In this document: positions 24,270 to 61,157 of the stretch, piece after piece | Layout: each line of letters starts with the position of its first letter | Numbering within the stretch: position 1 is the stretch's first letter | Source of the DNA: an uncultured archaeon | GTDB taxonomy: Archaea > Aenigmatarchaeota > Aenigmatarchaeia > CG10238-14 > SCSR01 | Assembly: GCA_964475145.1 (NCBI GenBank) | Contig: CAYYVK010000001.1 | Span: 6,328-70,327 of the forward strand | Direction of reading: 5' to 3' | DNA length: 64,000 nucleotides | Notes under the pieces: generated by a model | Database searches by the model: none | What the model was told of the DNA's origin: nothing | What the model saw: the letters and a program-made list of their open reading frames with translations, nothing else | Translations under genes and position numbers: made by a program

Positions 24270-25760
24270 TTAAAAAGGATATCCTAAACCTAGTGTAAAC
24301 AAGTAGACGTCAAACATGTCCCTGTTTAGTGTATTCACGTAAGAGACTTCATAACCTTTCTTTACTGGTGTAATAGTAGCTTCTAAAGAGATTTTTTTAG
24401 AGGCGAAAAGGAGCAAAGAAATGAGAAGCATTCTTTCATCATCACCAACTCCACCATCAGTAAAATTGGCTATCCAAGCAGTATTGTAAGCAGGTGTACT
24501 CTTGAGTACTACTCCTGGTATTATCCCTCCGGTCTCTGTTGTATTTTCTGCTTGAATTAACACCCTATTATAATCGTTATCATCTGGAAGTATGATATAA
24601 TATCTTCCCCACCTATTTACCAGGCCAGCAGCTACAGCATGCGCAGGTGGACCCTTACCTGGCTTATTCGGATCTATCTGGTATCCAAACTCGTATCTGA
24701 TAAAATCATAAAACTTGTACTTCGGCTGAAATGTTATGCCAATTTTTCCTTCACGGATATAGCTTAAAAGAAAAGTAAAGTTTTCACTCTGATTGTGAAG
24801 GTTTGGTAACTCGAATTTCTCACCTACACCTACTTTCAAATCAGCAGTACCATTCCAATCTGTGTCGAAGTAAACACTACTAAAGTTGCAAACCCAAAAA
24901 GAATAAGCATAAGGCTCTTCTACATTTTGACTGTCTACTTGATAGACGTAAGATTGTATCTTCAAGCTCCCATTGGTTATGTTTGAACAGTAAGGAGAAG
25001 GTAAAGAACCTTCTGTTTGGATATTACCTGATGGTAGTTGACTTGTTAAAATTGGGGCAGGAATATGGTAAAAATACTTCCAAGGTTGGTAGATTATATC
25101 ACTTGCGTTGCACGGCTTTTCGTCGCATTCGTATGTGACTCTAAATTTGTCGTAATCGGAAAACCTGGAAGTCTCTGTAATTGTCGTGTTAGTTAGCCCG
25201 AATATTTGTTTTGTTCCTAGATCGAGTAAAGTAGCGTTCAAGTCAGAAATCTCAACTATTCCGTTTCCGCTGCTAAGATAAGAATTTAGCATGCTAGTAT
25301 AAGGTGTAAGGTTTCTGTAACCCCAAATTAAAAGAAGGTCAGAACCAAAGTAGCAGGGATTAACAATACCAAGATAACTCGGACAAAACTCAATTCTAAT
25401 AGGTCTATTGTTCACCTCAAGCCCATAGGTCCAGTTGTTCAAAACGCTAATTTGTTCGTCTGTGCAATTACATGCTACAACTATTCTTCCTTTTATTGTC
25501 CCTTGTGTTGTATACCAAAAGACGGTATTGTTACCTAGAACTGTCTTAGTCAGGAAATCGGAAAGTGCATTTCTGTCAAAAGAAACACTGTATAGGATGC
25601 CTATCCTATCAGCAGTAGTTATCACATCTCGTAGTTTTAGAAGTGTGTCTGCAGCATCCCATCCGGTCTCGTAATAAAAAGGTGGGAAAAATATTGTTAG
25701 TGTAACTATCAGAATTATTATGGTTGAAATTGCTTCTATAATAGATATTTGTCCGCGCAT
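24270..25760 (-). CDS. large pilin-like surface glycoprotein with class III (type IV prepilin-like) signal peptide
   Basis: MRG|QISIIEAISTIIILIVTL N-terminus; ~19 N-x-S/T sequons in 496 aa; last gene of pilus locus. Confidence 0.5.
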   Translation of the reverse strand: MRGQISIIEAISTIIILIVTLTIFFPPFYYETGWDAADTLLKLRDVITTADRIGILYSVSFDRNALSDFLTKTVLGNNTVFWYTTQGTIKGRIVVACNCTDEQISVLNNWTYGLEVNNRPIRIEFCPSYLGIVNPCYFGSDLLLIWGYRNLTPYTSMLNSYLSSGNGIVEISDLNATLLDLGTKQIFGLTNTTITETSRFSDYDKFRVTYECDEKPCNASDIIYQPWKYFYHIPAPILTSQLPSGNIQTEGSLPSPYCSNITNGSLKIQSYVYQVDSQNVEEPYAYSFWVCNFSSVYFDTDWNGTADLKVGVGEKFELPNLHNQSENFTFLLSYIREGKIGITFQPKYKFYDFIRYEFGYQIDPNKPGKGPPAHAVAAGLVNRWGRYYIILPDDNDYNRVLIQAENTTETGGIIPGVVLKSTPAYNTAWIANFTDGGVGDDERMLLISLLLFASKKISLEATITPVKKGYEVSYVNTLNRDMFDVYLFTLGLGYPF

Positions 25761-25761
25761 C

Positions 25762-26268
25762 TTACCACACTCTTACACTTATTTTTGCATAAGAGCCTGA
25801 ATCTAAGGCCGCTATTCTAGTTACTTCTGCTATATTCTGTCTGGAAATCTTGGTAGGAGGTGAACAGCTTGCTAAGAGTGTGTTAGAAATTAAGTCTGCA
25901 ATCGTGATCTCAAATTGATAATCTTGTGGTACTCCTAATTTTTCGGCGATGGAATTGTAGTCTGAAGAACATGTTTGATTAAAGGCTTGTATTTTATCGA
26001 GAGAAATTAAGTTTGTTAAATTCTTCAACTCGCTAGAAAGGCCTATTCTCTTTATTTCACCAGGACTCGTTTGGGTCCAATTGAGTGGTTCGCCAAAATC
26101 GTTTACTAAAAGCTCAGAAATCTGGTAAGCTTCTGCTTTTAGAAGCCTATTTCTTATTTCTGCTCTGTACACCGAAGTAGCAGAAATTGTTTGAAAAACT
26201 ATGTATGTGGCAAACATTACAAACAATACTAGAGAAAAATAGTATTCGGAAGATACTTGAGCCTTCAT
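25762..26268 (-). CDS. pilin-like protein (class III signal peptide MKA|QVSSEYYF...)
   Basis: short charged N-terminus then ~20-aa hydrophobic helix; stop/start abuts neighbours. Confidence 0.4.
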   Translation of the reverse strand: MKAQVSSEYYFSLVLFVMFATYIVFQTISATSVYRAEIRNRLLKAEAYQISELLVNDFGEPLNWTQTSPGEIKRIGLSSELKNLTNLISLDKIQAFNQTCSSDYNSIAEKLGVPQDYQFEITIADLISNTLLASCSPPTKISRQNIAEVTRIAALDSGSYAKISVRVW

Positions 26269-27188
26269 ACTACCAGCAACCCTACTCTTGATAAGAACAT
26301 GAATGAAACTAAAACTATCACGCTAAGGATTAAGCTATGTTTTAATCCTGCTATTACAGAATTCTCGCTTATCTGTCCTGCAACCAAGCCAGCAAAGAAT
26401 GCTTGCATAAAAGCCATGTAGAAGAAGAGGGAAACATAGTAGGAGGGTATGCCAGGCTTAACACCAAACAAACTAGTTGAAGTTAGTTCAAAAAGTGCAC
26501 ATATACTGCAAGCTCCAGCTGTACAACTCTCGCAAGGGTTTGTTAGCCCGACTACCTGTCCAAAGGTTGGAGAATAGAAAACAGGCATTAACAAATGATT
26601 GATAAGAACGATTATCACTATGAAAATTATAGTTATAGCATAGATTATTAGCAAGTGTTTATGTAATATGCTTCTCTTCTCCTTTTCTGCCTCTTGCAAG
26701 GTTATCAAGTTGTCTGCAACAGAATCTATGACAGAAACTATCTCACCTCCAGACAAATGAGCCTCTCTTATTATATTCACTGCCATATAAAGCCTTTTAC
26801 TACTTTTTACCCTTTCAGCAAACTGACCTAGAACCTTATCTACACTCATCCCCCAGCTTATTTGATTAGACATCTTCTTTACTTCCAGGCTCAGCCTACC
26901 ATAGCCTATTTTACTAGTTTGTTGTATTGCCTTGTAAAGTGGCATTCCAGAGCTTATAGCTTCTGCCAAATCGTGTAAAAAGTTTGGAAATACTGCCTCC
27001 ATTTCTTTTATGTCTCTGTACTTCTGGTACTGGTAAAGGAAATACATGAAAACTATTGCTAAAGTAGAAACTATTATCCCATTAGCTAAAACTCCCCTGT
27101 CGCCAGTTAAAACACCTATAAGAATAGCTCCTAGTAGAATTGCTCCAGAAATCCCTATCATCCTAATTTCTCTCTTAATTTTATTCAC
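26265..27188 (-). CDS. pilus-assembly platform protein, TadC/FlaJ half-size (T2SS-F domain)
   Basis: 307 aa; cytoplasmic helical domain followed by 3-4 TM helices; paired with a second such gene next to a FlaI/TadA ATPase. Confidence 0.55.
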   Translation of the reverse strand: MNKIKREIRMIGISGAILLGAILIGVLTGDRGVLANGIIVSTLAIVFMYFLYQYQKYRDIKEMEAVFPNFLHDLAEAISSGMPLYKAIQQTSKIGYGRLSLEVKKMSNQISWGMSVDKVLGQFAERVKSSKRLYMAVNIIREAHLSGGEIVSVIDSVADNLITLQEAEKEKRSILHKHLLIIYAITIIFIVIIVLINHLLMPVFYSPTFGQVVGLTNPCESCTAGACSICALFELTSTSLFGVKPGIPSYYVSLFFYMAFMQAFFAGLVAGQISENSVIAGLKHSLILSVIVLVSFMFLSRVGLLVV

Positions 27189-28041
27189 CTCCTGGTGTTG
27201 CTGCCTTTACAAGATAGAGGAAAAGAATCGAAACTGACGGTATTACCACGAAAATCATCATAAATTGGAGGGGAAGTACGTTGCCTCCTCCTATTCCAGA
27301 AATTATTGCAGTTAGGACTGTCATAAAAATAGCTGCAAGAATTATCGCAACAAGGTATATCTCCAAGTAAATCGTCAGGCTGTGAGCAAACTCGTATAAT
27401 TTTCTTCTGTATTCTACCATCATGCTATTGGACTTCTCTTTCAAGTATACATTCAAATCTCCACCTGCTCTTACGATTGAAAGGATTCCGTAAAAGATTT
27501 CACTAAGCTTTTTTGATGGTGACCTTTCAATAGCTCTTTCAAGTGCTGTGTTTACGTCTAGTCCGAACATCTCTATGTCTGTATTAATGGAGTTTATCTC
27601 AGCTGCAATTTCTTCCCTTCCAAACTTGGAAGACATCTTTAAAATTTTTGATAAAGGTAGTTTTGTACTAGCTATAGTTGAAAGATAGAGGAGGGAAAAA
27701 GGTAGTGCGCTATCTATCTTCTTCTCCCTATCTCTAATCAAAAGCTTTGGATAGTTTATGTACAAGTAAAAGAAGATTATAGAGAGGAAGACTGATGTGG
27801 TGAAACCAGTAAAAAATGCAAAAGCAAAGCTTTTAAACAATAATCCGTAGATGAAAGAAAATATAGGCAACTCGAAAAGGAAAACTATTAAGCCTGTTAG
27901 CAAAGATTTGGAAATGAACTCTTCCACAGAAATTTTAGACTTTGATTTTCTTAAATCAGATTTTAAGTCTGGAAAGTAAACTGTAAGCTTGCCCGCATAC
28001 TCGCTGAAAAGTTTGTAGGCAACCCTATCATAGAAACCCAT
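27181..28041 (-). CDS. pilus-assembly platform protein, TadB/FlaJ half-size (T2SS-F domain)
   Basis: 286 aa polytopic membrane protein; overlaps both neighbours by a few nt. Confidence 0.5.
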   Translation of the reverse strand: MGFYDRVAYKLFSEYAGKLTVYFPDLKSDLRKSKSKISVEEFISKSLLTGLIVFLFELPIFSFIYGLLFKSFAFAFFTGFTTSVFLSIIFFYLYINYPKLLIRDREKKIDSALPFSLLYLSTIASTKLPLSKILKMSSKFGREEIAAEINSINTDIEMFGLDVNTALERAIERSPSKKLSEIFYGILSIVRAGGDLNVYLKEKSNSMMVEYRRKLYEFAHSLTIYLEIYLVAIILAAIFMTVLTAIISGIGGGNVLPLQFMMIFVVIPSVSILFLYLVKAATPGGE

Positions 28042-29841
28042 CTAGCTCTCACCCATTACTACTGCCAGAACTCGAACAGGTGATGTATAATAAAGGTTTA
28101 TTACCTGGTACACACTTCTATAATCTGTTATGTTCTTTTTCTTCATCCACTCTAGAATCAAAGCCCTCCTTTGTAGCTCGTCTATCACGTCTTGCTCTGG
28201 TATACCAAACGTCTTTGAAATTTTCTTAAGAGTTAGACTCTTGCCTTGTACATCAAACTTGTCTGTGAAAGAATTCCACTTTAGCACAGTATTTACAGTG
28301 GGTCTTTGAGTCTCAAAATCAAAACCTGTTACCTCTACCACTTCACTCACTCTTCTAACAAACTTTTCTTTATACCTAGCACGAATTAGGAAAACTATCA
28401 AATCTAAGCTTGCAACGAGTGGAGGAGGTAGGGCAATAGGTTGTGTTGTTAATCTGTCAAAAAGTTTATTCATGTCTTCTGCATGTATTGTTGCAAGAGA
28501 TGGGTGACCAGTAGAGATTTGTTGGAATAGGATGTAAGCTTCTTTACCCCTAACCTCCCCAACTACTATATAATCTGGTCTTTGTCTTAGGCTTTCTCTC
28601 AGCAGGTCGAACAAGTCTACCTCTCCTCTTTCTCCCTTACTTATAGCAGTTCTTGCAACAGTAGGAACCCAGTGAGGATGTGGTAACCTTATTTCTGCAG
28701 TATCCTCTATAGAAACGATCTTCTTCTCTGGCCTGATAAAAAGAGAAAGAACGTTTAGCATAGAAGTTTTACCAGTTGCTGTACCACCAGAAATCAGAAT
28801 ACTTCTCCCATAATCTACTGCCAGCCATAAGAATGCTAAAGTCTTTGCATCGACTGTTCCATAGTTCATTAAATGAATAGGCGTTAAAGGCTCTTCTGTG
28901 AATTTTCTGATAGTAAAATTGCTTCCTTTTCTTGCTATGTCTGTGGCTAAAGTTGCTTGTAAACGCGAGCCGTCAGGGAGAGTTCCATCAACCAAAGGTT
29001 CAGCAACTGAAATAGATTTACCGCTTAACTGAGCTAACCTTATTATAAAAGAGTCTAGTTCCTCAGCAGAAGGAAAAACTACATTAGTAACTATAGAGCC
29101 AAAAGCAGGATCTCTATGATAGACAAAAATTGGCACCCCTACTCCGTCGCAAGAAATGTCCTCTATATTCGGGTCTTGCATTAATGGTTCTATTCTTCCC
29201 AAACCAACAAAATCTCTGTTTATGTAGTAATCAAGTATTTCTCTTTCCTCTGGTGTAATTTCTACCTTAAAGTATTTTAGCAATTCACTTATCTGTTGAC
29301 GGATATACTCTCTTGCTTCAGCCACTCCTAATTTAGAGAAGTCTACCTCCAGCCTCTGTTCTAGGAGCTCTCTAAGCTTATTCATCAAACTTTTTATCTT
29401 ATCACTCAAAGGCGGTTCAACTAACTGATAAACATATTTATTTGCCTTTTCGTCCCAGAAGATCCGAGCATAAGCAAAAATCTTTTCACCTTTTTTTGGA
29501 TTTCTTGGAATTAAAGGATATATGGTGACTCCTTTTTTAATTTCTACAGCTTCTTTTTTTCCTATCCCAACTTTTTTAATTTCTGTTGGAATCTCTAATC
29601 CCTCTTCTACCTTTACTTCTTTTCGAATGGCTGGTTTTTCTACTTCCTTAGGAACTTCTACACCACCTATCATTGGCCGAATCTTTAACGGTACTTCTAT
29701 CACACCTCCAGTAGACTTTATAGCTAAAGAAACTCCCAGCGGGCCTATTCCTGCTCCTTCTGCTTCAGCACTCTTAGCTTCCGTTAGGACTTTCTTCGCA
29801 CCCCTAATCATTTTTCTTGCTACTATTTTAGCTATCCTCAT
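28042..29841 (-). CDS. type IV pilus/archaellum-family secretion ATPase (FlaI/TadA/VirB11-like) with ~120-aa Lys/Glu-rich N-terminal extension
   Basis: Walker A ILISGGTATGKTS; DYIVVGEVRG Walker B/Asp box; His box TGHPSLATIHAED. Confidence 0.8.
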   Translation of the reverse strand: MRIAKIVARKMIRGAKKVLTEAKSAEAEGAGIGPLGVSLAIKSTGGVIEVPLKIRPMIGGVEVPKEVEKPAIRKEVKVEEGLEIPTEIKKVGIGKKEAVEIKKGVTIYPLIPRNPKKGEKIFAYARIFWDEKANKYVYQLVEPPLSDKIKSLMNKLRELLEQRLEVDFSKLGVAEAREYIRQQISELLKYFKVEITPEEREILDYYINRDFVGLGRIEPLMQDPNIEDISCDGVGVPIFVYHRDPAFGSIVTNVVFPSAEELDSFIIRLAQLSGKSISVAEPLVDGTLPDGSRLQATLATDIARKGSNFTIRKFTEEPLTPIHLMNYGTVDAKTLAFLWLAVDYGRSILISGGTATGKTSMLNVLSLFIRPEKKIVSIEDTAEIRLPHPHWVPTVARTAISKGERGEVDLFDLLRESLRQRPDYIVVGEVRGKEAYILFQQISTGHPSLATIHAEDMNKLFDRLTTQPIALPPPLVASLDLIVFLIRARYKEKFVRRVSEVVEVTGFDFETQRPTVNTVLKWNSFTDKFDVQGKSLTLKKISKTFGIPEQDVIDELQRRALILEWMKKKNITDYRSVYQVINLYYTSPVRVLAVVMGES

Positions 29842-30263
29842 CAGCTTACCCCTAAAATATTTTTATCTTTTTCTAATGTTAAAGTTATAGGCTTAATCGA
29901 GTAAGAAAAGCCGTTGAAAAGAAGTGTATAGTTTAAATTGTGTAAGGATGACTTATCTGCGACTCCTCCTGGTTGAGTAATTACACTAGACTGATTGTTG
30001 CTAAAACTTATCTCTGTGTAATAACCTCCTGTCATGTTCTGGAGTTTGAAAGAAAGAGCAGCATAATCACATATTTTACATTCAGCAAGAAGGTTTATAG
30101 CAATCGCTGAAACGTAGCTATTAACCAATTTTCTGTGACCAGAAGCAACGTCTTCTCTAAATAGGTCGGACTGAAGTTTAAAAAAGTATCCTAATGCTCC
30201 TAGTATGCTTATGCTTAAGACAAAGAAAATTACAAATTGTACTACGACTGTTTGAGCTTTCAT
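29841..30263 (-). CDS. pilin-like protein (MKA|QTVVVQFVIFFVL...)
   Basis: class III-like signal peptide; 140 aa. Confidence 0.4.
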   Translation of the reverse strand: MKAQTVVVQFVIFFVLSISILGALGYFFKLQSDLFREDVASGHRKLVNSYVSAIAINLLAECKICDYAALSFKLQNMTGGYYTEISFSNNQSSVITQPGGVADKSSLHNLNYTLLFNGFSYSIKPITLTLEKDKNILGVS

Positions 30264-30874
30264 CCTAAAAGAATTTTTACTTTTGTTATAGTTAAACCTT
30301 CTGGAGTTGTGGTTATTTCACCCCTAGATATACCTATTGTTTTACCAGTAGAGGTTGTGGGACCTGTTACCTCTAACTCGATCTTCTGTCTTACATTAGG
30401 GTTGCTTGGGTCTACTAGCTCTCTAAACCATATTTTGTAAGTGATGTTGTAACCGTCTCCAAAAGGATCTGCACGACCACAAGTAACGAAAGAGTTACTT
30501 CCTAGGTATGCTGAATCTGAAGGAGATACACAATTATCGCCAGCCAAGAGTGCAACCCAGTCTCCTGTTGCTGCTAGGTTAGTAGCTTTGCTAAAAAAAG
30601 TAAACTGAATACTGTTACTTGCAGTTTCAATTATCCATATGCCGTCTACGTCTAATTTAAACGTATCATACCCACCCTTGTTAGCAACGGTTGTTATCTT
30701 TCTTTGTAAGGAGTTTGGATTGTTTGGGTCAAAATATCCAGCTACTCTTTCTGTTACAGACCTGCTCTGCATTTTTTGTATTAACGGCAAACCCCATGTA
30801 TATGCCATCGCAACAAGTGTTATGGCTATTAGCACTACCAAAACAGCAGAAATGATCTCACTCACACCTTTCAT
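30260..30874 (-). CDS. type IV pilin (archaeal class III signal peptide MKG|VSEIISAVLVVLIAITLVA)
   Basis: Textbook prepilin/prearchaellin N-terminus; first pilin of locus. Confidence 0.6.
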   Translation of the reverse strand: MKGVSEIISAVLVVLIAITLVAMAYTWGLPLIQKMQSRSVTERVAGYFDPNNPNSLQRKITTVANKGGYDTFKLDVDGIWIIETASNSIQFTFFSKATNLAATGDWVALLAGDNCVSPSDSAYLGSNSFVTCGRADPFGDGYNITYKIWFRELVDPSNPNVRQKIELEVTGPTTSTGKTIGISRGEITTTPEGLTITKVKILLG

Positions 30875-30877
30875 ATT

Positions 30878-31345
30878 TTATAGTGTTGGTTTTGGTGGTA
30901 ATAAAGGTTTTTTAATAGTAATTGGTGGTCTTCTTAGTCTCTTCTCCACTTCTTCCAAAGATGCTTGCATAGCCTGGTTCGCTTCTACCATCTTCTTTGT
31001 CATTTCTATTAGCTGGTCCAGCTTTTGAGCAATAGAAGGAGTGATTCCTTCCTTAGAAGCTACTTCCTCTTCTGCCGACGCTTTTATGAAATTTATTAGT
31101 TCTTCTAACCTTGAAGTCAGATCTTCTAACCTGGAAGGAAGCTTTGAAAGCTCTATTCTCAAGGCATCGTTGGCCTTTGCTAATTCGTCTACAATTTGTT
31201 GATTCATCCTGATTATATCTACAAGCTCTTTATAAAGCTCTTTCGAGTCAAAAGCTTTGGAAGCTTCTAACTGCTCTATTCTCTTTTCCAACCTTCTTAA
31301 AGGAGAAATAGGAATTATTTCTACTTCCTCTGTACATTCTGGCAT
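30878..31345 (-). CDS. coiled-coil protein (prefoldin-like heptad repeats), function unknown
   Basis: 155 aa; long heptad-repeat helices, Pro-rich basic tail. Confidence 0.3.
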   Translation of the reverse strand: MPECTEEVEIIPISPLRRLEKRIEQLEASKAFDSKELYKELVDIIRMNQQIVDELAKANDALRIELSKLPSRLEDLTSRLEELINFIKASAEEEVASKEGITPSIAQKLDQLIEMTKKMVEANQAMQASLEEVEKRLRRPPITIKKPLLPPKPTL

Positions 31346-37295: not shown

Positions 37296-37350
37296 TAAAC
37301 TTTAGAACTCTTGCATTGCAAACTTAATTATCAATTTTTAATTAGAATGT

Positions 37351-37872
37351 ATGAAGGTGTTCTTAACAGGAGCGCCGGGCTCTGGCAAGTCAACTGTCTT
37401 AATGAATATAGTTGAAATTTTAAGAGAAAAAGGGTTAAAAATTGGTGGTATTGTTACACCAGAAATAAGAAGTGGGAGGAGAAGAATTGGTTTTGGAGTA
37501 AAAGACGTCTTTTCTTGTGAAGAAGGGATCTTAGCGAGAGTAGACGAAAAAGTTGGTCCTAAAGTTGGAAAGTATACAATCAATTTGGAAAGCTTTGAAA
37601 AGATTGCTTTACCCGCATTAGATTTTGCTTTTGAAAATTGTGACTTGGTTGTTATAGACGAGATTGGGAAAATGGAAGCTTTCAGCAAGAGATTCATGGA
37701 AAAAGTTTTTGAAATTTTAAGTTCGAAGAAGAAAGTCTTGGCAGTTTTGCATAGAAACTTTGTCTCGGAATTTAAAAGTTTTGGTAGAGTTATAGAAGTT
37801 ACTGAGAAGAATAGAGACGTATTACCACAAGAGTTGGTAAAATACTTTTTAAGTGGGTCCGCGCAGAATTGA
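37351..37872 (+). CDS. nucleoside-triphosphatase THEP1 family (P-loop NTPase)
   Basis: MKVFLTGAPGSGKST Walker A, VVIDEIGKME Walker B; 173 aa. Confidence 0.7.
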   Translation: MKVFLTGAPGSGKSTVLMNIVEILREKGLKIGGIVTPEIRSGRRRIGFGVKDVFSCEEGILARVDEKVGPKVGKYTINLESFEKIALPALDFAFENCDLVVIDEIGKMEAFSKRFMEKVFEILSSKKKVLAVLHRNFVSEFKSFGRVIEVTEKNRDVLPQELVKYFLSGSAQN

Positions 37873-37925
37873 ACTGCGATCTCCACTTTGTAAGAGTGGC
37901 GTCCTAACCGTTAGACTACGGACCC
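37854..37925 (-). tRNA. tRNA-Val (TAC), 72 nt, no intron
   Basis: Reverse complement GGGTCCG-TA-GTCT-AACGGTTA-GGAC-G-CCACT-CTTACAA-AGTGG-AGAT-CGCAG-TTCAATT-CTGCG-CGGACCC-A. Confidence 0.85.
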
Positions 37926-37964: not shown

Positions 37965-40022
37965 GTGAGCCTTAAAAAGGAAAGCATCCTGAACCTACTT
38001 GTACTGATAGCAATCTATGCATTTCTTTTAAACTATTTCAAGCCAAGCCTAATCCTGAGAGATACACACATAGCTGGTGGTGATACAGGATCGTTTAACT
38101 ACATGTTATTTTACATGAAAGAGTATCTATTACCTAACGGTAAACTAATTGGTTGGAGTCCGGGCTGGTTTGCTGGCATTCCTATTTTTCAGTTTTACTT
38201 TCCTGCACCATTTTTAGTTGCAGTAATATTAAGCTATGCAACTCCACTAAACATAGCCTTTAAGCTTGTTACAGTCTCAGGGACTTTCTTACTGCCTATA
38301 ACCTGCTTTTTATTTGCTAAATCATTGAAGTTAAAGTTTCCTCTACCAGCCATTGCTGCAACACTGGCGCTTCTCTTTCTTTTTAACGAAGGAAACTCTA
38401 TGTGGGGAGGTAATATTCCAAGTACATTAGCTGGTGAATTTTCTTACAGCCTTAGCCTTGCTTTTACAGTTTTGTTTTTAGGGTCGATTTTTAGAGGAGT
38501 TAAGGAAAACAGATTTTTATTAGCAAACGTTTTGCTTCTGAGTTTCACCGCTCTAACGCACGTCTACACCCTACTCTTTGCTGTGGCATGCTCTCTTTTT
38601 TTCCTCTTCAAAAAATCTAGGAGTGAAGTTGTTAAAAACTTAAAGTATCTCTTAAAGGTTTACTTTTTAGCGTTTCTTTTAGTAAGCTTTTGGTTCATTC
38701 CTGCCCTTGCTAAGTCTGAATACAGAACTCCCCTTAATTACGTGTGGCAAACTAAAGACCTAAAGGAGGTTGTTCCAATTACATTATTACCTGCTCTAGT
38801 TTTAGCTTTTTTTGGTGCTTTAGCAGGATTTAGATTAAGAGATGAAAGAGTTTACTATATTTTGTTCGCAACTCTTGTTTCCTTAGTCTTGTACAAGCTA
38901 ACACCTTTCCTTAAACTAACAGATGCAAGGTGCTTACCATTCTTCCAACTAATGCTATGCTTTTTAGCAGCTTATGCTTTTGTTCCATTGGCTTCGGAAA
39001 GATTAAAACCACTTTTACCTGTAATCGTTCTTCTTTTAACAATTGCTTTTGTAGCCAAAACGATGTCTTACATACCTTACTGGATAGAATGGAATTATAG
39101 CGGGTTCGAAAGCAAAAACGGTTGGCAGCAGTTCGATGCTATAAACAAATACTTGCAAAGCTTGCCAGAAGGTAGAGTTGTTCATGAATTTTCTCGTATA
39201 CATGACAAATTTGGAACAGTAAGGGCTTTCGAATCTATCCCATTTTTTGCTAAAAAACCTGTTTTAGAGGGACTACTGATAGAATCTGCAGTGAACGCAC
39301 CTTTTGTATTTTGGATACAGTCAGAAATTTCTGAAACACCCACTTGCCCAATCCCAGGAATGACTTGCTCACAATTTTCTTTAGAGAATGCAACGCCTCA
39401 CCTACAACTTTTTAACGTAAACTATATAGTTGCTACTTCTGAAAAACTGAAAAATGCTTTGAGAAACAATTCACAATACACCTTTTTAAAAAAGTTTGAT
39501 GAAATAGAAATCTACAAAGTAAACAACAGTGGAAAGTATGTTGAATTAGCTAGGTACGAGCCTGTATTAGTAAAAACTAAAGACTGGAAGAAATTATCGC
39601 TAGAATGGTTTAAGAACAAAAATTTGCTAGATGTGCCACTTGTTTTTTCTGGCGATGAAAAGAGCTTTAAAATTGTAATAAACGATGACCTAACAAAATT
39701 GGTTAAGATACCTGTAGAAGCTAATTGCTCTTTAGAAGAGTTTGTAGCAAACGAAGAAATAAAGATTAAGACTTCTTGTGTAGGAAAACCCTTGTTAATA
39801 AAAATTTCTTATTTTCCAAACTGGAAGGTAGAAGGGGCTGAAAAGATTTACTTAGCATCGCCTGCCTTCATGCTTGTTTTCCCAAAAAATGAAAATGTGA
39901 GGATATACTACACGGAAACCTTAAGCGACCTGATAGGAAAAGTTTTTTCGATGGTTGGATTGATAGTATTAATAGCTTCTGCAGCATCAAAAAGAATTTC
40001 TAAATTCTTAAGCTCAATCTAA
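37965..40022 (+). CDS. large polytopic membrane protein, probable GT-C-fold glycosyltransferase (YfhO/DUF2298-like)
   Basis: 685 aa: ~400-aa multi-TM N-terminal domain, ~270-aa soluble domain, terminal TM; convergent with GT2 gene. Confidence 0.4.
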   Translation: MSLKKESILNLLVLIAIYAFLLNYFKPSLILRDTHIAGGDTGSFNYMLFYMKEYLLPNGKLIGWSPGWFAGIPIFQFYFPAPFLVAVILSYATPLNIAFKLVTVSGTFLLPITCFLFAKSLKLKFPLPAIAATLALLFLFNEGNSMWGGNIPSTLAGEFSYSLSLAFTVLFLGSIFRGVKENRFLLANVLLLSFTALTHVYTLLFAVACSLFFLFKKSRSEVVKNLKYLLKVYFLAFLLVSFWFIPALAKSEYRTPLNYVWQTKDLKEVVPITLLPALVLAFFGALAGFRLRDERVYYILFATLVSLVLYKLTPFLKLTDARCLPFFQLMLCFLAAYAFVPLASERLKPLLPVIVLLLTIAFVAKTMSYIPYWIEWNYSGFESKNGWQQFDAINKYLQSLPEGRVVHEFSRIHDKFGTVRAFESIPFFAKKPVLEGLLIESAVNAPFVFWIQSEISETPTCPIPGMTCSQFSLENATPHLQLFNVNYIVATSEKLKNALRNNSQYTFLKKFDEIEIYKVNNSGKYVELARYEPVLVKTKDWKKLSLEWFKNKNLLDVPLVFSGDEKSFKIVINDDLTKLVKIPVEANCSLEEFVANEEIKIKTSCVGKPLLIKISYFPNWKVEGAEKIYLASPAFMLVFPKNENVRIYYTETLSDLIGKVFSMVGLIVLIASAASKRISKFLSSI

Positions 40023-40683
40023 GCAGGTTTAAAAACATTCTGGGTATGTGAGAAAGCTGGAAGCTAGTAGTTTCTAGCTTTTTAACTGGCGTGTATACTT
40101 CTTTAATCTCAAAACCTTTCCTTCTTATCTTGTTTAAAAGCTCTACGTCAAACTCAAAACCTTTGCACCTAAAGTTCATGCCTATAGAGTCTAGCACATA
40201 CCTTTTCACAAATTTTAATCCTGCCTGTGTATCTTCTAGTTGTAAGTGAAGGAAAAACCTTACTAGAATGTTCCAAAACCTTCCTGCAACTTTTCTTAGA
40301 AAAGGCCAATCTACACAAGAAAACCTTTGACCCTTCCATTTAGAAGCTATTGCACAATCTGTACTTTCCAAAGCCTTAACAACATTCCTTATCTCTTTGC
40401 ATCCAAAGCTACCATCTGCATCAACAAAGCCTATGTAAGAACCTTTAGCAACCTTAAAACCTTCTACTATTGCGGCACCTTTTCCTATCTTTTCCCTGAA
40501 GACAAGAGATTTGACGTTTTTCCTTCTAAACTCATCAACAATCTCAGGAGTTCTATCCGTACAACCGTTGCAAACAACTATTATTTCTTCTGATGGAAAA
40601 CACTTACAGAGCTCCTTCAAAAAGCTACCGATGTGCTTTTCCTCGTTGTAGGCTGGAATTATTATGGATATTTTAGCCATCAA
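40000..40683 (-). CDS. family-2 glycosyltransferase (dolichyl/polyprenyl-phosphate sugar synthase-like)
   Basis: IIIPAYNEEKHIGSFL, GFVDADGSF (DxD), QAGLK motifs. Confidence 0.75.
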   Translation of the reverse strand: MMAKISIIIPAYNEEKHIGSFLKELCKCFPSEEIIVVCNGCTDRTPEIVDEFRRKNVKSLVFREKIGKGAAIVEGFKVAKGSYIGFVDADGSFGCKEIRNVVKALESTDCAIASKWKGQRFSCVDWPFLRKVAGRFWNILVRFFLHLQLEDTQAGLKFVKRYVLDSIGMNFRCKGFEFDVELLNKIRRKGFEIKEVYTPVKKLETTSFQLSHIPRMFLNLLRLSLRI

Positions 40684-40699
40684 TAAAAACTTGAAAAAG

Positions 40700-41629
40700 C
40701 TAGTATTTAGACTTTTTAACAGCTAAGAGAAAGAGAGCAAGAGCAAGCAAAACTATCTGAAGTAAGCCGAATAGGTCAAACTCTGGTAAGCTAGCAATTC
40801 CAACTTTTATTGGAATCTCTAACTTGTACCAGCATTTGTTATCTATACACGCTGAATTTGTCCCATATGGAATTAGGGGGCATGGACAGCTTATTTGATC
40901 GTCAGCCGTAGGCCTTACAAAAAGATAGAGGGTAAGATCTGTAGCTAAGAGAAAGTTCATTCTTGGATAGAACTTAGCTATTTCGCCCCAGTATACAGAG
41001 CTCGTATTACCGCTTGAAGGACTGACCCAAACTGCTTCCGGGAAAGAGGATGAAATATTTACAGAAAAGTTGGTTGCTAATGCGCCTCTGTTTATAACAC
41101 CCACTTCCCAGACAAATTGCTGCCCTACAGTCGCAGAGCTTAAGGGTGCTGTTACCTCAAACGCAATTGGCTGAATAGAACGATTTACTGTACCATTGTA
41201 CAAACTAGGATTTATTGGATCAGAAAAGTTACATATAACTACATTTAATGTAGTATAGTCGTAGGCTGGAAACATTATCGTACAACCATCCTCCTCTCCC
41301 GCAACTGAAGTTTTTGTACATTTTTGGTCTGGTGTGTTCAAGTAGCATTCTACCTTAATATCCCTTCTGCTACCATCGCTATAAGAAGCGTTCCATCGTA
41401 CGTTCAAGTAGTCTCTAACATGGCCCTCAAGCCCAAGTGGATGCTCTCCTGTCATCAGTGTTTCTGGATATAAAAAGTTTCCACCGTATGGGGAATATTT
41501 TACAGGAAACACCCATATAGATAAAATTGTAAAAGTGAAATTAGCTGGCAGTAACTGGAATTGGGCATACCCTGCAGGAGTAAAAACCAAAACTAAAGTA
41601 ATAAAAAGCAATAGAGTGATTTTCTTCAT
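40700..41629 (-). CDS. secreted surface glycoprotein with Sec signal peptide and PEF-CTERM-like sorting signal
   Basis: MKKITLLLFITLVLVFTPAGYA signal; ~9 N-x-S/T sequons; C-terminus ...SLPEFDLFGLLQIVLLALALFLLAVKKSKY (PEF, TM helix, basic tail). Confidence 0.5.
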   Translation of the reverse strand: MKKITLLLFITLVLVFTPAGYAQFQLLPANFTFTILSIWVFPVKYSPYGGNFLYPETLMTGEHPLGLEGHVRDYLNVRWNASYSDGSRRDIKVECYLNTPDQKCTKTSVAGEEDGCTIMFPAYDYTTLNVVICNFSDPINPSLYNGTVNRSIQPIAFEVTAPLSSATVGQQFVWEVGVINRGALATNFSVNISSSFPEAVWVSPSSGNTSSVYWGEIAKFYPRMNFLLATDLTLYLFVRPTADDQISCPCPLIPYGTNSACIDNKCWYKLEIPIKVGIASLPEFDLFGLLQIVLLALALFLLAVKKSKY

Positions 41630-41662
41630 AATACATATTTTGAGATGCTATTAATTAATTAC

Positions 41663-42391
41663 TCATTGAGCAAGAATTCCTAAGGTAGCTGCTATTAAGA
41701 AGATTATTTGGCGGATTTCATATCTAGGTCTCCACTTGAAGATTCCATTACCAGAAAGTCTAACAGTTCCTTTATCACCGTTAAGCGTTACTTGATACTT
41801 ACAGCCTCCATTCAGAAGCTTTATGTTTGGTCTAAAGCTTATCACTCTCAAGCAGTTGCTAAACTTTTGCATATACTCCTTAAACTTTTCATTTTTTTCT
41901 AGGGTTCTGCCTCTAAGAACCTCGTAGATTAAACCTTCTACGTTCTTGAACATTGCCTGCTTTAGCTCTAAAGAATGGTTGGTGTATATCTTTTGTAAAT
42001 CTTCTGAACTCAGTTTTAAAGGTGTAAACTTCGTACCTAAAATTTTTTCCAAACCTGCTACTATTTCTTCTGTTTTCCTATCAGGGCCTCGATAGATTTC
42101 TAGAGTTTTTGTCAACAGGTTTATAAAACAGTACACACGTTTTAACACTTTGCTCTTACCGTTTTGTTTTAAGAATGTAACTATCTCTTCTGCTTCCTCT
42201 TCAGAAAAAACTTTTCTCATGCTATCGTCTATATCCTCATACCACCAGTACTGGATGAACAACTCTTGTTTGTTGTATTTGCTAGGTCTCGAAGTTATCC
42301 ATCCTCCGTTCAATTTAACATTCTTTAAAGCTACCCATATTTCACGAATGGTAAACGTTTTCTCGAAGGTGTAAAGAGTTATACACGGCAT
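41663..42391 (-). CDS. hypothetical protein with C-terminal TM helix
   Basis: 242 aa; no recognised motif. Confidence 0.3.
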   Translation of the reverse strand: MPCITLYTFEKTFTIREIWVALKNVKLNGGWITSRPSKYNKQELFIQYWWYEDIDDSMRKVFSEEEAEEIVTFLKQNGKSKVLKRVYCFINLLTKTLEIYRGPDRKTEEIVAGLEKILGTKFTPLKLSSEDLQKIYTNHSLELKQAMFKNVEGLIYEVLRGRTLEKNEKFKEYMQKFSNCLRVISFRPNIKLLNGGCKYQVTLNGDKGTVRLSGNGIFKWRPRYEIRQIIFLIAATLGILAQ

Positions 42392-42498
42392 GTTACCACC
42401 TCCTTCTAATCATTAATATATATACATTAAGGTATATTTAAATGTTTCTATAGTGTACTTCCGATACTTTTTTATACTATTACTACAAAAGAACATAC

Positions 42499-42969
42499 AT
42501 GGGAAAAATAACATCTAAGGAAGAAGAGTACGATACAAGAAACGCAAGGAGAATAAAAGAGCTTCTCGATAAAAATGAAAGAGGTCTTACAATAGCAGAA
42601 ATAGCTAATCAGCTAAAGCTCAACAGACATACAGTAGCAAAGTTGTGTGAAAGGATGTTAATAGAAAAAAAGATCAATTATGACGAAAAAGGTCCTGCAA
42701 AAGTCTACTACTCTGTTGGTCCAAGCAGGTTTGTTGGTAGAATAGACTTAAGCCCTACCGAGAAATTGTGGATAGATGTTTTCAAACATCCTAAATATAG
42801 CGGGGAGGAAGAGTTTGTAAGAATAAACCAAACTAAACATGATAACTTAATTAGATCGAGTAGCAAGTTTAAGTCTGTTGGAGCTATAGCAATTAAAAAG
42901 AGTCAACTAATAAACTTTATAAGAATTCTAAGGGATGTCGCAAGAAAGGAGTTTGGCTTGAACGTCTAG
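42499..42969 (+). CDS. winged-helix transcriptional regulator
   Basis: LTIAEIANQLKLNRHTVAKLCERMLIEKKI HTH. Confidence 0.45.
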   Translation: MGKITSKEEEYDTRNARRIKELLDKNERGLTIAEIANQLKLNRHTVAKLCERMLIEKKINYDEKGPAKVYYSVGPSRFVGRIDLSPTEKLWIDVFKHPKYSGEEEFVRINQTKHDNLIRSSSKFKSVGAIAIKKSQLINFIRILRDVARKEFGLNV

Positions 42970-43011
42970 AAAAGAATTTTATGTGTGCTGTTAAATAATA
43001 ACTGAGGAAAA

Positions 43012-43422
43012 ATGGAAAAAAATAGAGAACTGGAAGAAAAGATTTTGGCGCACAGAATACTAGAAGTAAGGTTAGGTGCTTTGCTAAAGAATAGAGATCA
43101 AATGATTGCTAAATTGAACGAAATAGAAAACACTATAGAAGGTATAAATGAAATAAGAAAAAGTGACAAGTTTCTCTTTCCCCTTGGGAGTGACACATAT
43201 GTTTTCGGAAATGTGACAAATAAGGAAAAGCTGGTAGTTGAGATGGGTGCTGGTGTAGCATTTGAAAAAACTTTTGATTCTGCAGTTGAGACACTGAAAA
43301 AGAAAAAGAATGAGTTGGAAAAACTCGTAGCCGAAACTCAGGAAGAGATATCAAAAACTTCTCTTGCTCTTCAACAAATAGATTCTGAAATCCAGAAGCT
43401 TGCTAGCAAATCTTCCAAATAG
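43012..43422 (+). CDS. pfdA: prefoldin alpha subunit
   Basis: 136 aa coiled-coil with central beta-hairpin segment FLFPLGSDTYVFGNV...VVEMGAGVAFEK; conserved pfdA-ftsY adjacency. Confidence 0.65.
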   Translation: MEKNRELEEKILAHRILEVRLGALLKNRDQMIAKLNEIENTIEGINEIRKSDKFLFPLGSDTYVFGNVTNKEKLVVEMGAGVAFEKTFDSAVETLKKKKNELEKLVAETQEEISKTSLALQQIDSEIQKLASKSSK

Positions 43423-43433
43423 GGGTAAGTAAA

Positions 43434-44540
43434 ATGTTCAGTCTTTTGAAAGAAAAATTTAAGAAAATGATAAAATCCTTTTCTGAAAAAGTTGAGGAAA
43501 AAGGAAAGAGTGTGGAAGAATTAAGAAAAGAAATTGAAAAGTTATCCAAAGAAGAAACTGAAAAAGCAATAGAAAAAATTAAGTTGAAGGTTGAAGAACT
43601 ACCAGAAGTTAAAAAGGAAATTGAAGAAGAACTTAAAAAAGTAAAACCAAAAGAAAAAAAAGGCTTATTCAAAAAAATTGCCGAGAAGATAACAAAAAAA
43701 ATTTCTGAAAAAACTTTATCAGAAGAAGATGTAGAGCCTATACTTAACGAGCTTGGTAAAGATCTTATAGAAGCTGATGTCGCCTATAGTGTTGTAGAAA
43801 AGATGAAAAACGATTTGAAAAAAAGTCTAGTCGGAAAGGAAATAAAAAGAGGGAAAGAGAAAGAAGCTATAACGCTTGCTTTAAAAGAGAGCATTTTAAA
43901 AATACTAGAAGTTCCTAGCTTTAGCTTAACAGAAAAATTGAAAAATAAAAAACCTGTTTTAATTCTCTTCTTAGGTTTTAACGGTAGTGGTAAGACGACA
44001 AGTCTTGCTAAAGTTGCAAAGTGGCTAATAGACAAAGGCTATTCTTGTGTTTTTGCTGCTGCAGATACTTTTAGAGCTGGTTCAGAGGAACAGTTAGAAG
44101 AGCATGCAAAGAAAATATGTGCAAGAGTCATAAAGCATAAGTACGGTGCAGATCCTGCTGCTGTGATATTTGATGCTGTAAGACATGCGGAAGCGAATGG
44201 TATAGATTTTGTTTTAGCGGATACAGCAGGAAGAAGCCATACAAACGAAAACTTGATGAATGAAATGGAAAAGATAATTCGAGTAAATAAACCAGACGTA
44301 AAAGTGCTAGTGATAGACAGTCTCACAGGAAACGATGCAGTTCTACAAGCAAAGTTTTTTGGGAAGCTTGGAATAGATGCTCTTATCTTCACGAAAGTAG
44401 ACGTGAATGAAAAAGGAGGGGCAATACTTTCTGTTGTTGATGAACTAAAAAAACCTATTTTGTTCCTTTGTAATGGACAAGACTATTCAAACTTAGAAGA
44501 ATTTTCTCCTCAAAAGTTCGTCGAGAACCTTCTTAGTTAA
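43434..44540 (+). CDS. ftsY: signal recognition particle receptor FtsY
   Basis: KE-rich N-domain; NG domain GFNGSGKTTSLAKVAKWL, DTAGR, TKVD motifs. Confidence 0.85.
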   Translation: MFSLLKEKFKKMIKSFSEKVEEKGKSVEELRKEIEKLSKEETEKAIEKIKLKVEELPEVKKEIEEELKKVKPKEKKGLFKKIAEKITKKISEKTLSEEDVEPILNELGKDLIEADVAYSVVEKMKNDLKKSLVGKEIKRGKEKEAITLALKESILKILEVPSFSLTEKLKNKKPVLILFLGFNGSGKTTSLAKVAKWLIDKGYSCVFAAADTFRAGSEEQLEEHAKKICARVIKHKYGADPAAVIFDAVRHAEANGIDFVLADTAGRSHTNENLMNEMEKIIRVNKPDVKVLVIDSLTGNDAVLQAKFFGKLGIDALIFTKVDVNEKGGAILSVVDELKKPILFLCNGQDYSNLEEFSPQKFVENLLS

Positions 44541-50567: not shown

Positions 50568-51449
50568 ATGAAAAAGTTGTTAGCGTTGTTGCCAGTAATG
50601 CTTTTATTAATTCTCCAAGCAGCAAATGCTCAGGAAGAAACTGTTAACATAATATCCAACATTCTTGTTCAGTTCTCTGGTGTTATATTCATCATTGCTT
50701 TTGTTATAATACTTTTGTTGATTGCTGGTGTTTTTCCAAGAATATCTATTGGAGGAATTCCGTGGGGAACTATTGGGTTGCTTATAGCTATTCTCATAGT
50801 AATGCTCGTTCCATTTTTCATCGACTTAGAGTGGCTAACATCACAATTTAAGGTTAGCCTTCCTCAATATCAGCAATCGCCGCTTCCTGCGCCTGCAGTA
50901 ACAGTTCTTTCTGATTGGCTAGGATTACCTAAAGACTGGATGTACATACCTGCGATAATATACTTCTTTCTCCTGCCTTTTGCAGCAGTCTTTGCTCTTA
51001 TTTATGCGTTCTTAGCTAGCATAAACATGTGGGGAGGAAAGAACAACATAAACAGGCTGCTCGCGTTTATAATAACGATAATGACCATACCTACTGGTAT
51101 TTTAACAAGAATGACGATGGTAATGTTTGTATTCCTAGGTATGTGGACGCTTGGCGTTTTCTTTGTGACTTTTGTCGTTGGTGTTCTCTACAGGGGAGCA
51201 GGAGTTATAGCGAAAGAAAGGGCAACCTACAAAGCCATGAGGGGTCCGATAAGGGAGCTGGCAGAATCGTTTAGAAAGTATGCTGATAGAAAAATTGCAG
51301 CTATCGCGCCTACCGAGCGTGTGAAACAAGAGACCATGAGAAGGACAAGAGATGATATAGAAGAAAAGATATATCTAGGTGAAATAAAAACTCTTGACGA
51401 AGCTAAAAGTCAGTTTGATAAGCAGTATGAGAGTATAGTCGGTAAATAA
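50568..51449 (+). CDS. membrane protein with signal peptide
   Basis: 293 aa; MKKLLALLPVMLLLILQAANA signal then 6 TM. Confidence 0.4.
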   Translation: MKKLLALLPVMLLLILQAANAQEETVNIISNILVQFSGVIFIIAFVIILLLIAGVFPRISIGGIPWGTIGLLIAILIVMLVPFFIDLEWLTSQFKVSLPQYQQSPLPAPAVTVLSDWLGLPKDWMYIPAIIYFFLLPFAAVFALIYAFLASINMWGGKNNINRLLAFIITIMTIPTGILTRMTMVMFVFLGMWTLGVFFVTFVVGVLYRGAGVIAKERATYKAMRGPIRELAESFRKYADRKIAAIAPTERVKQETMRRTRDDIEEKIYLGEIKTLDEAKSQFDKQYESIVGK

Positions 51450-60249: not shown

Positions 60250-60269
60250 TTGCTTACTTAAATATTTTT

Positions 60270-61156: not shown

Positions 61157-61157
61157 G

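Follow-up and report, generated by a model that had tools for sequence, protein, structure and literature searches.

A conserved GT2/PF10131 gene pair, probably for glycosylation from a lipid-linked monosaccharide, beside an LPEF-tailed surface protein in an Aenigmatarchaeota archaeon

We analysed 64,000 nucleotides of an uncultured Aenigmatarchaeota archaeon (contig CAYYVK010000001.1, positions 6,328 to 70,327 of the forward strand; this whole stretch is hereafter the window), in which the gene for a membrane glycosyltransferase of the GT-C type lies convergent with a GT2 glycosyltransferase gene, next to a gene for a secreted surface protein with a C-terminal LPEF tail. The window is AT-rich (GC about 37%), the housekeeping genes around the locus (class-I lysyl-tRNA synthetase, Orc1/Cdc6, prefoldin, FtsY and thermosome-like proteins) are archaeal, and the named closest homologues of the GT-C protein come from Aenigmatarchaeota/DPANN assemblies. 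A previous reading of the letters (the original prediction) had placed three open reading frames (ORFs) here, and all three were recovered at the same coordinates. The features of the locus are, in window positions:

37965..40022, plus strand: GT-C-fold membrane glycosyltransferase of family PF10131 (PTPS_related), 685 aa (ORF, Pfam match and structural model)
38082..38084, plus strand: Asp40 of this protein, in G38-G39-D40, first external loop after helix 1 (invariant in 27 homologues)
38406..38441, plus strand: conserved loop GGNIPSTLAGEF of this protein, residues 148-159, including the invariant E158 (invariant or near-invariant alignment columns)
39090..39104, plus strand: W376-N377-Y378-S-G380, at the start of its extracytoplasmic domain (alignment)
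40000..40022, unstranded: 23-bp overlap, where the convergent GT-C and GT2 genes meet at their 3' ends (ORF coordinates)
40000..40683, minus strand: GT2 glycosyltransferase (GT-A fold), 227 aa, predicted dolichyl-phosphate monosaccharide synthase (ORF and PF00535 match)
40414-40422, minus strand: DAD motif of the GT2, D88-A-D90, residues 88-90 (sequence)
40700..41629, minus strand: surface protein, 309 aa, secreted, sequon-rich and C-terminally anchored (ORF and homologues)
40703..40789, minus strand: its tripartite tail, LPEFD, then LFGLLQIVLLALALFLLAV, then KKSKY (sequence and homologues)
41564..41629, minus strand: its signal peptide, residues 1-22, with PAGYA before and QF after the cleavage site (read from the sequence; kept in homologues)
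41663..42391, minus strand: 242-aa cytoplasmic protein without a family match (ORF and Pfam scan)

Family match and predicted structure show the 685-aa protein to be a GT-C glycosyltransferase that belongs to a separate family, with STT3/AglB, AftA and the PMT group as its nearest structural neighbours. Its Pfam match is to PF10131 (E 1.3e-32; 113.5 bits, the cut-off being 26.4), which is part of the GT-C clan CL0111 and is annotated as 'function unknown' (PMC7801869), and PF10131 is also the only family matched at significance by its 27 aligned homologues (44-66% identity). The name YfhO-like, given to it previously, does not hold: PF09586 was not matched by the window protein at E ≤ 0.1 and appeared in only one of the 27 homologues, at a non-significant E of 1.7, so that YfhO membership is ruled out by these hidden Markov models (HMMs). 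Membership of STT3 is likewise ruled out by sequence, since PF02516 found none of the 27 members even at E ≤ 10. An AlphaFold2 model built from the 27-sequence alignment (predicted local distance difference test, pLDDT, 90.8; predicted template-modelling score, pTM, 0.90) comprises a multi-helix core, an alpha/beta region at about residues 370-520, a beta-sandwich reaching to about 650 and a final membrane helix. This agrees with the predicted multi-helix protein with a large extracytoplasmic domain (about 280 aa, roughly residues 370-650, then one C-terminal helix).

Structural comparison of the model put human STT3B in the top row (20.5 / 446, values as given by the comparison), followed by AftA (18.5 / 436), Pmt4 (18.2 / 323), Pmt2 (17.1 / 328), Archaeoglobus fulgidus AglB-L (17.0 / 417), AftD, ArnT and PglB (all 15.8, with 502, 409 and 416, respectively) and DPY19 (14.2 / 451), and Foldseek was in accord with this ranking. 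A match to AglB/STT3, named at the outset as one result that would overturn the proposal, is thus absent at the level of HMMs, whereas STT3B and AglB are among the closest structures. Family match, GT-C fold and a conserved acid in the first extracytoplasmic loop all place the protein in the GT-C clan, and in structure its outer domain matches the central-core (CC) unit of AglB. The domain used for comparison is made up of the central core alone, a unit that bears the WWDYG and DK motifs and builds the Ser/Thr pocket of oligosaccharyltransferases (PMC3703281).

The conserved residues of the family are consistent with an enzyme of this fold. Asp40 is a candidate catalytic or metal-binding acid, by analogy with the acidic motifs of external loop 1 in related enzymes (PMC7801869, PMC3703281), and R322 is also conserved. 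At the start of the outer domain W373, W376, N377, Y378, G380 and K384 are invariant; in the model, WNYxG falls in a helix (370-378) straight after a membrane helix (350-366). The set W373..W376-N377-Y378-x-G380..K384 stands where the WWDYG motif of STT3/AglB (PMC3703281) is expected and may be its counterpart; a DK or MI motif was not identified. Paired DXD motifs of the STT3/AglB type do not occur in the family, D40 and E158 being single invariant acids with no conserved D-x-D, and no TIXE-type acidic motif is conserved in the loop at about residues 250-272.

In the 227-aa protein, the Glycos_transf_2 domain (PF00535) is recognised at E 4e-23, and no membrane helix is predicted. Its best match in the PDB is the dolichyl-phosphate-mannose synthase of Pyrococcus furiosus (5mlz, E 2.7e-13, residues 3-185); ArnC structures align over residues 3-193, and the GtrB-type protein sll0501 gives a weaker, partial match (residues 4-120). 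The top NCBIfam models are AglJ, PpgS and a dolichyl-phosphate-hexose transferase, all scoring below their equivalog cut-offs (AglJ, 59.6 against 325 bits; PpgS, 57.9 against 370 bits). A DXD-bearing domain whose closest relatives use a polyprenyl-phosphate acceptor makes the class, a polyprenyl-phosphate monosaccharide synthase as originally predicted, well supported on sequence grounds.

To see how widely the two genes occur together, we scanned 185,579 species-representative genomes with two peptide patterns, GGNIPSTLAGEF being one of them, and recovered 559 loci at which a relative of the GT-C protein is encoded. Of the 559, the best 80 were taken for the comparison (loci are numbered L001 onwards). 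PF10131 is a large family, with more than 1200 homologues among the matches listed. The archaeal loci among the best 80 belong to Aenigmatarchaeota, Altiarchaeota, Hydrothermarchaeota and Nanoarchaeia, and the bacterial ones to Desulfobacterota, the anammox Brocadiaceae and Scalindua, Methylomirabilota, Saganbacteria, Margulisiibacteriota, Actinomycetota, Binatia and others. With 400 bp from the GT-C gene as the limit for calling a GT2 homologue adjacent, we found the pair in 46 of the 76 GT-C genes with usable flanks (24/33 in archaea, 22/43 in bacteria). Of the 24 archaeal pairs, 23 converge and overlap at their 3' ends, as in the window, whereas in bacteria the adjacent GT2 gene is co-directional. 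When the 66 GT2 matches were placed at random on the ORFs of the same loci, 12.4 ± 2.9 were adjacent (maximum 25 in 2000 trials), against 46 of 66 observed. The GT-A and GT-C genes are therefore linked beyond chance in both domains of life; the pair is a conserved unit, and its reading as two cooperating enzymes is well supported. The convergent pairing of CsbB/YfhO type that had been proposed thus stands, the GT2 being nearest to polyprenyl-phosphate sugar synthases, and the pair follows the logic of multi-component transmembrane glycosylation systems (PMC8035078), a conclusion we regard as well supported.

Two further proteins recur beside PF10131 genes in relatives. The first, here called X, is a type-I membrane protein of about 265 aa whose gene immediately precedes the GT-C gene and shares its strand, in archaea and in bacteria. 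It consists of a signal peptide, two Ig-like domains of the CARDB/NEW3 type, a C-terminal helix and a basic tail, and has an invariant motif resembling Y-x-D-A-N-x-Y-P-F-S and no conserved sequon. X adjoins the GT-C gene in 33 of 36 unfused cases (8.7 ± 2.2 expected), and at six bacterial loci (L031, L051, L054, L057, L061 and L064) it is fused in frame to the GT-C N-terminus. Small GT-C enzymes have been speculated to need a second protein for acceptor binding (PMC8035078), a role that X would fit. Examples among the roughly 34 X genes are:

L005, 7237-8031: X gene
L008, 9202-9996: X gene
L016, 3924-4784: X gene
L019, 9132-9944: X gene

The second is a four-helix EamA/SMR-like protein of 126-129 aa, encoded directly upstream of the GT-C gene at five archaeal loci and, where X is present, between X and the GT-C gene. 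Small proteins of the EamA/SMR type flip the lipid-linked sugar in the Arn pathway, ArnE/F being of the same type, and by this analogy the protein is a candidate flippase of ArnE/F type. At L043 (13157-13875), a tandem pair of EamA/SMR-like genes lies about 2.5 kb away. The five genes are:

L013, 9567-9950: EamA/SMR-like gene
L015, 5057-5419: EamA/SMR-like gene
L030, 9583-9975: EamA/SMR-like gene
L046, 2878-3267: EamA/SMR-like gene
L056, 9587-9967: EamA/SMR-like gene

One PF10131 homologue, P0107, carries TPR repeats. Some of the loci are richer in glycosylation genes: L046 (5386-14107) and L056 (12070-17363) are glycosylation islands, in which PF10131 is accompanied by a PMT_2-type GT-C protein and by a second GT2 beside a DUF2298 protein. 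Pfam finds two DUF2298 proteins in L046, whereas the genes of L056 were matched only by position and sequence similarity. At L017, a PAP2 phosphatase and a DUF2079 protein adjoin the pair.

The 309-aa surface protein begins with a Sec-type signal peptide (MKKITLLLFITLVLVFTPAGYA, followed by Q) and contains eight N-X-S/T sequons, where shuffled sequences hold 2.35 ± 1.39 (P about 2e-4). The earlier count of about nine was thus slightly high, whereas the enrichment on a secreted protein holds. Several sequons are preserved in homologues through Ser/Thr exchange; this retention, together with the excess, makes N-glycosylation of the protein likely, as far as can be read from sequence. Of its eight cysteines, seven are invariant or near-invariant in a 34-sequence family alignment. 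AlphaFold2 returned an all-beta model with a C-terminal helix, which, at a pLDDT of 56, is too poor for a fold search.

A word-indexed search gave six homologues of this protein, and an exhaustive profile search 215 cluster representatives. Many family members are of similar length (300-340 aa) and many others are much longer (400-2561 aa); in the latter, query positions of about 62-308 correspond to the C-terminal 250 or so residues, and the N-terminal regions vary, with a LamG-like start in the L006 homologue and an OmpL47-type barrel and DUF11 repeats in P0212 and P0221. The 309-aa protein is the minimal member of a family that has in common a C-terminal module of about 250 aa, all-beta and cysteine-containing, and this module acts like a shared stalk or anchor to which differing surface domains are joined. 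The LPEF-anchored module is widespread among relatives of this archaeon. It marks a large group of DPANN surface proteins whose outer domains vary, and offers a simple handle for cataloguing them and for studying their anchoring. Three tandem paralogues at L088 (251-1486, 3909-5726 and 5772-8414; more than 411, 605 and 880 aa) have the same module and LPEF tail behind different N-termini. On several Aenigmatarchaeota-like contigs, LPEF-module genes lie one or two genes from a prefoldin-FtsY(-SRP54) group (L085 10001-10981, L087 10001-10969, L090 8001-8972, and the window itself, 40700-44540).

The tail of the protein was originally described as a PEF-CTERM-type sorting signal, with the caveat that the PEF motif could be coincidental. 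LPEFD, separated from KKSKY by 19 mainly hydrophobic residues, is invariant in the six close homologues, one of them at 34% identity, and the pattern [SA]-L-P-[ED]-[FY]-x(2-3)-G-xx-Q-I, followed by a helix and a K/R cluster, was found in most of the roughly 150 homologues whose tails we read (cluster representatives at 50% identity plus the close homologues). Since the tail is kept across the family, coincidence is ruled out. The architecture of PEF, helix and basic KKSKY cluster was therefore correctly described. However, the curated PEF-CTERM and other NCBIfam sorting-domain models matched neither the whole protein, nor the tail alone (E ≤ 10), nor ten family members, although HMMER filters may hide very weak matches. 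The window has only one tail of the LPEF type, and every such tail found elsewhere was preceded by the same module of about 250 aa; we did not find the signal on unrelated proteins of one genome.

In agreement with the original prediction, no archaeosortase was recognised among the multi-helix ORFs of the window scanned with Pfam and NCBIfam (a scan that left out a 440-aa ORF with 12 segments at 15416-16738), and none appears in the Pfam domain lists available for eight related contexts. The scanned ORFs comprised an A24 prepilin peptidase, MscS, MFS, T2SS-F-like and SagB-type dehydrogenase proteins, and two without a match. A 293-aa protein at 50568-51449 (plus strand), with a signal peptide, about seven helices and a charged C-terminal tail, is unmatched in Pfam and NCBIfam; it has no cysteine and so cannot be a Cys-dependent sortase. 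With a tail outside the curated models and tied to one module, and no archaeosortase in sight, the proposed self-contained sorting module is not shown.

The tail could nevertheless be a true archaeosortase signal, a new PEF-CTERM variant that is cleaved and exchanged for a lipid anchor by an enzyme encoded elsewhere, a question that is independent of the alternatives considered below. Its tripartite architecture lies at the extreme C-terminus, P-[ED]-[FY] and G..QI are, in most tails read, kept far beyond the needs of a plain anchor, and PGF-CTERM is likewise preceded by a conserved domain. Archaeosortase C has moreover been assigned to PEF-CTERM (PMC5244752). Set against this, known sorting tags sit on unrelated proteins, whereas the tail here never occurs without its module; neither curated models nor searches of the window and of the eight contexts for archaeosortases or exosortases gave a match; and archaeosortases have been placed in a subset of Euryarchaeota (PMC6098224). 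On balance we find this explanation rather doubtful. A separate case is P0182 (1282 aa, encoded outside the window), in which an internal LPEF-type tail (SLPDFG...) is followed directly by what resembles a type-IV-pilin/archaellin signal, MSKAQSEIISALLVVIIATGLV...; either gene calling has fused two genes or the protein truly has two parts.

Next, we considered whether the surface protein is tied to the enzyme pair, either by serving it as a dedicated acceptor or by standing in for X in this lineage. Its gene is co-directional with the GT2 gene at a distance of 16 bp, and the same order, with about 20-35 bp between the genes, recurs in L001 and L002. Like X, it is built from a signal peptide, beta domains in which a CARDB-like N-x-G...A motif occurs, a C-terminal helix and a basic tail, and module genes stand beside the GT-C cluster in other arrangements too: as a divergent 475-aa homologue in L006, as a one-domain version of 156 aa upstream of X, EamA and GT-C in L046, and as this same version in frame with X in L056. 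At four loci (window, L001, L002 and L006) the module adjoins the GT-C gene and X is missing. Homology to X was nonetheless rejected, as the profile-profile comparison reached an hhalign probability of only 35% over 40 columns, with a weak match to the CARDB motif. L046 and L056 hold both X and a module protein, which speaks against a simple replacement, and L003 has GT-C, GT2, prefoldin and FtsY genes and no surface-protein gene. A general link between the surface family and PF10131 was also rejected: none of six further family members lies beside a PF10131 gene, whereas three of the six lie beside prefoldin-FtsY(-SRP54), as in the window. Shared synteny, that is inherited gene order, can therefore explain much of the adjacency; the neighbourhoods of L001 and L002 are wholly syntenic with the window. 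We thus consider a functional link of the 309-aa protein to the pair unlikely, and the same holds for its role as dedicated acceptor or substitute for X.

Taken together, these data lead us to favour a joint reading, with a probability of roughly 0.55, in which the GT2 and PF10131 proteins carry out glycosylation from a lipid-linked monosaccharide and the 309-aa protein is independently N-glycosylated and anchored. The GT2, soluble or peripheral, would charge dolichyl phosphate, on the cytoplasmic side of the membrane, with a single sugar taken from a nucleotide sugar. The lipid-linked sugar would then be flipped, for which no gene lies beside the pair in the window and an EamA-like candidate is found in some relatives. 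Outside, the PF10131 enzyme would pass the sugar to an extracytoplasmic acceptor, with Asp40 as the key acid. This acceptor is most likely a protein, because the outer domain resembles the peptide-binding central core of AglB, an Ig-like partner is usual and sometimes fused, and TPR repeats occur on some bacterial homologues. The 309-aa protein would be N-glycosylated, held by its LPEF-helix-basic anchor, and may be co-transcribed with the GT2. Family assignments, fold, conserved motifs, neighbourhood statistics, the excess of sequons and the conservation of the tail are observed, whereas we infer which lipid and sugar serve as donor, on which side of the membrane each step takes place, that the acceptor is a protein, and any tie to the 309-aa protein.

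Several observations weigh against this scheme. PF10131 has no characterised member, so that donor, acceptor and even activity have to be inferred, and the full-text-searchable literature reports no function for it, the one paper found to name the family giving 'function unknown' (PMC7801869). In 30 of 76 cases, the GT-C gene has no GT2 gene within 400 bp; in archaea the two genes are not co-transcribed, because they are convergent; and a search of the window found neither X nor an EamA-like flippase candidate. A sequence profile of the outer domain did not recover AglB, the central-core similarity being structural only, and the zero out of six contexts for the surface family counts here as well.

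Alternatively, the pair could serve a non-protein acceptor, be it a lipid or glycolipid of the membrane or a polysaccharide at the surface, as do CsbB/YfhO with teichoic acids, ArnC/ArnT with lipid A, and PpgS/Rv3779 and the Aft enzymes with arabinogalactan; the 309-aa protein would then be unrelated to it. The Arn pathway is mirrored in five relatives, whose GT-C gene adjoins that of a small ArnE/F-like EamA protein, and most characterised bacterial pairs of GT2 and GT-C act on glycopolymers (PMC8035078). However, the envelopes of the hosts (DPANN archaea, anammox planctomycetes, Desulfobacterota, Actinomycetota and Saganbacteria) differ so widely that a shared non-protein acceptor is hard to name. 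The conserved and sometimes fused Ig-like protein partner, the TPR repeats on one homologue and the AglB-CC-like outer domain also point away from it, and we judge it improbable. Least probable is that PF10131 is a divergent oligosaccharyltransferase-like enzyme which N-glycosylates sequons, such as those of the 309-aa protein, with a dolichyl-phosphate-linked sugar begun by the AglJ-like GT2, as a minimal N-glycosylation system: the invariant W..WNYxG at the site of WWDYG, AglJ as the best NCBIfam match of the GT2 and the sequon-enriched neighbour with its sequon-preserving Ser/Thr swaps would fit, but PF02516 is unmatched, one conserved first-loop acid replaces the two expected DXD motifs, the TIXE site has no conserved acidic motif, Asn takes the place of the Asp of WWDYG, the usual partner X has no conserved sequon, and the family is common in bacterial phyla that, to our knowledge, are not known for N-glycosylation.

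One further reading would make PF10131 a previously unrecognised sister family of the oligosaccharyltransferases that glycosylates Ig-like (CARDB-type) proteins from a dolichyl- or polyprenyl-phosphate monosaccharide made by the GT2, with X as presenting subunit or first substrate and the LPEF-module proteins of DPANN archaea as further clients. We put this forward as a speculative idea with the odds against it; if true, it would amount to a new protein glycosylation pathway common to archaea and many bacterial phyla. In any case, PF10131 gains a testable frame, consisting of a partner GT2, an Ig-like partner, an occasional EamA-like flippase candidate and an outer domain like the peptide-binding core of AglB; in the literature we searched, we met no description of its conserved partners or of this outer domain. 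If the acceptor is a protein, DPANN archaea and many uncultured bacteria would have an extra glycosylation route. The DPANN surface is central to the host-attached lifestyle of these organisms.

The genes around the locus add some detail on its organisation. The minus-strand order is 242-aa ORF, 309-aa ORF, GT2 ORF, with gaps of 33 and 16 bp; from this spacing, the three genes form a possible operon-like transcription unit headed by the 242-aa gene. Homologues of the 242-aa protein are encoded in L002, L010, L026 and L036, where a few kb separate them from the GT-C gene. Promoter and terminator sites were no commoner in the region than in shuffled sequences, in a scan that used a sigma-70 model not designed for archaea. 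On the other side of the GT-C gene lies a tRNA gene, which overlaps the final 20 bp of the NTPase ORF:

37853-37925, minus strand: tRNA-Val(TAC) gene, between the NTPase gene (37351-37872) and the GT-C gene

Given this tRNA gene, a 182-aa minus-strand ORF at 37338-37886 is spurious.

Elsewhere in the window lie further genes for membrane or surface proteins. A probable type-IV-pilus/archaellum-like cluster at 24270-31345 (minus strand) encodes two T2SS-F-like membrane proteins (26265-28041), a 599-aa ORF (28042-29841), several small proteins with an N-terminal hydrophobic helix, and a 496-aa protein with 15 sequons, the densest in the window. At 57791-62440 (plus strand), a 691-aa protein with nine helices, unmatched in Pfam and NCBIfam, is followed by five ORFs (128-286 aa) with a pilin-like N-terminal helix, and this may be a second pilus-like locus. 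Just upstream (56722-57639, plus strand) lies a gene for a membrane-anchored SagB-type dehydrogenase/nitroreductase (TIGR03605, E 8e-40) with an N-terminal extension of three helices. SagB-type enzymes usually act in peptide maturation.

Finally, we compared the locus with known systems. For the tail, the nearest is PEF-CTERM with archaeosortase C (Haft et al, 2012, via PMC5244752 and PMC6098224), which likewise combines P-E-F, a helix and a basic cluster on a secreted, probably glycosylated archaeal protein. It differs in that the tail described here is unmatched by the curated model, always follows one homologous module of about 250 aa, and has an extra conserved G..QI in the helix; no archaeosortase was found nearby, and the host, a DPANN archaeon of the Aenigmatarchaeota, lies outside the Euryarchaeota named for archaeosortases (PMC6098224).

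For the enzymes, the combination of a GT2 with a GT-C protein is an architecture already known, whereas the GT-C family is uncharacterised. In the bacterial multi-component transmembrane glycosylation systems, CsbB/GtlA (GT-A) works with the flippase GtcA and with YfhO/GtlB (GT-C) (PMC8035078). Shared with these are the side-by-side genes for a GT2/GT-A and a multi-helix GT-C protein, the logic of synthesis inside and transfer outside, and, in some relatives of the pair, small four-helix flippase candidates. However, the GT-C protein here belongs to PF10131 rather than PF09586, the GT2 has no membrane helices, the candidate flippase is EamA/SMR-like rather than GtrA-like and is absent from the window, and PF10131 relatives add a conserved Ig-like membrane partner. 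Teichoic acids, as bacterial cell-wall polymers, are moreover not expected acceptors in an archaeon. The likeness to ArnC/ArnE-ArnF/ArnT lies in the alignment of the GT2 with ArnC over residues 3-193 and in the EamA/SMR protein beside the GT-C gene of five relatives; in contrast to the Arn pathway, archaea have no lipid A, no ArnT/PMT_2 HMM is matched, and ArnT has no AglB-like outer domain.

With STT3/AglB/PglB, the family shares the invariant, Trp-rich W..WNYxG at the start of the outer domain. It departs from them in lacking a PF02516 match, sequence-level similarity in the outer domain and a conserved external-loop-5 motif, in having one conserved acid rather than two DXD motifs and Asn for the Asp of WWDYG, and in being paired with a monosaccharide-type GT2 rather than with a cluster for the assembly of lipid-linked oligosaccharides. 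In AglJ/AglD with AglS (N-glycosylation in Haloferax) and in PpgS/Rv3779 of mycobacteria, a GT2 charges polyprenyl phosphate and a multi-helix enzyme delivers the sugar outside. The pair follows the same scheme of charging and delivery, whereas its GT2 scores far below the equivalog cut-offs of AglJ and PpgS.

The donor logic is also that of PMT, TMTC, TMEM260 and DPY19, which use a dolichyl-phosphate monosaccharide made by a DPM1-type GT2. The domain on which TMEM260 acts is Ig-like. It is one domain common to the cMET, RON and plexin receptors (PMC10214176), and PF10131 similarly has a specific Ig-like protein as its conserved partner. HHpred searches from the N-terminal regions of TMTC detect PF10131 (PMC7801869), and one PF10131 homologue has TPR repeats, like TMTC. 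Unlike these enzymes, the family matches neither PMT nor PMT_2 and has no MIR domain, and its Ig-like partner is fused or encoded next to the enzyme rather than being a free substrate.

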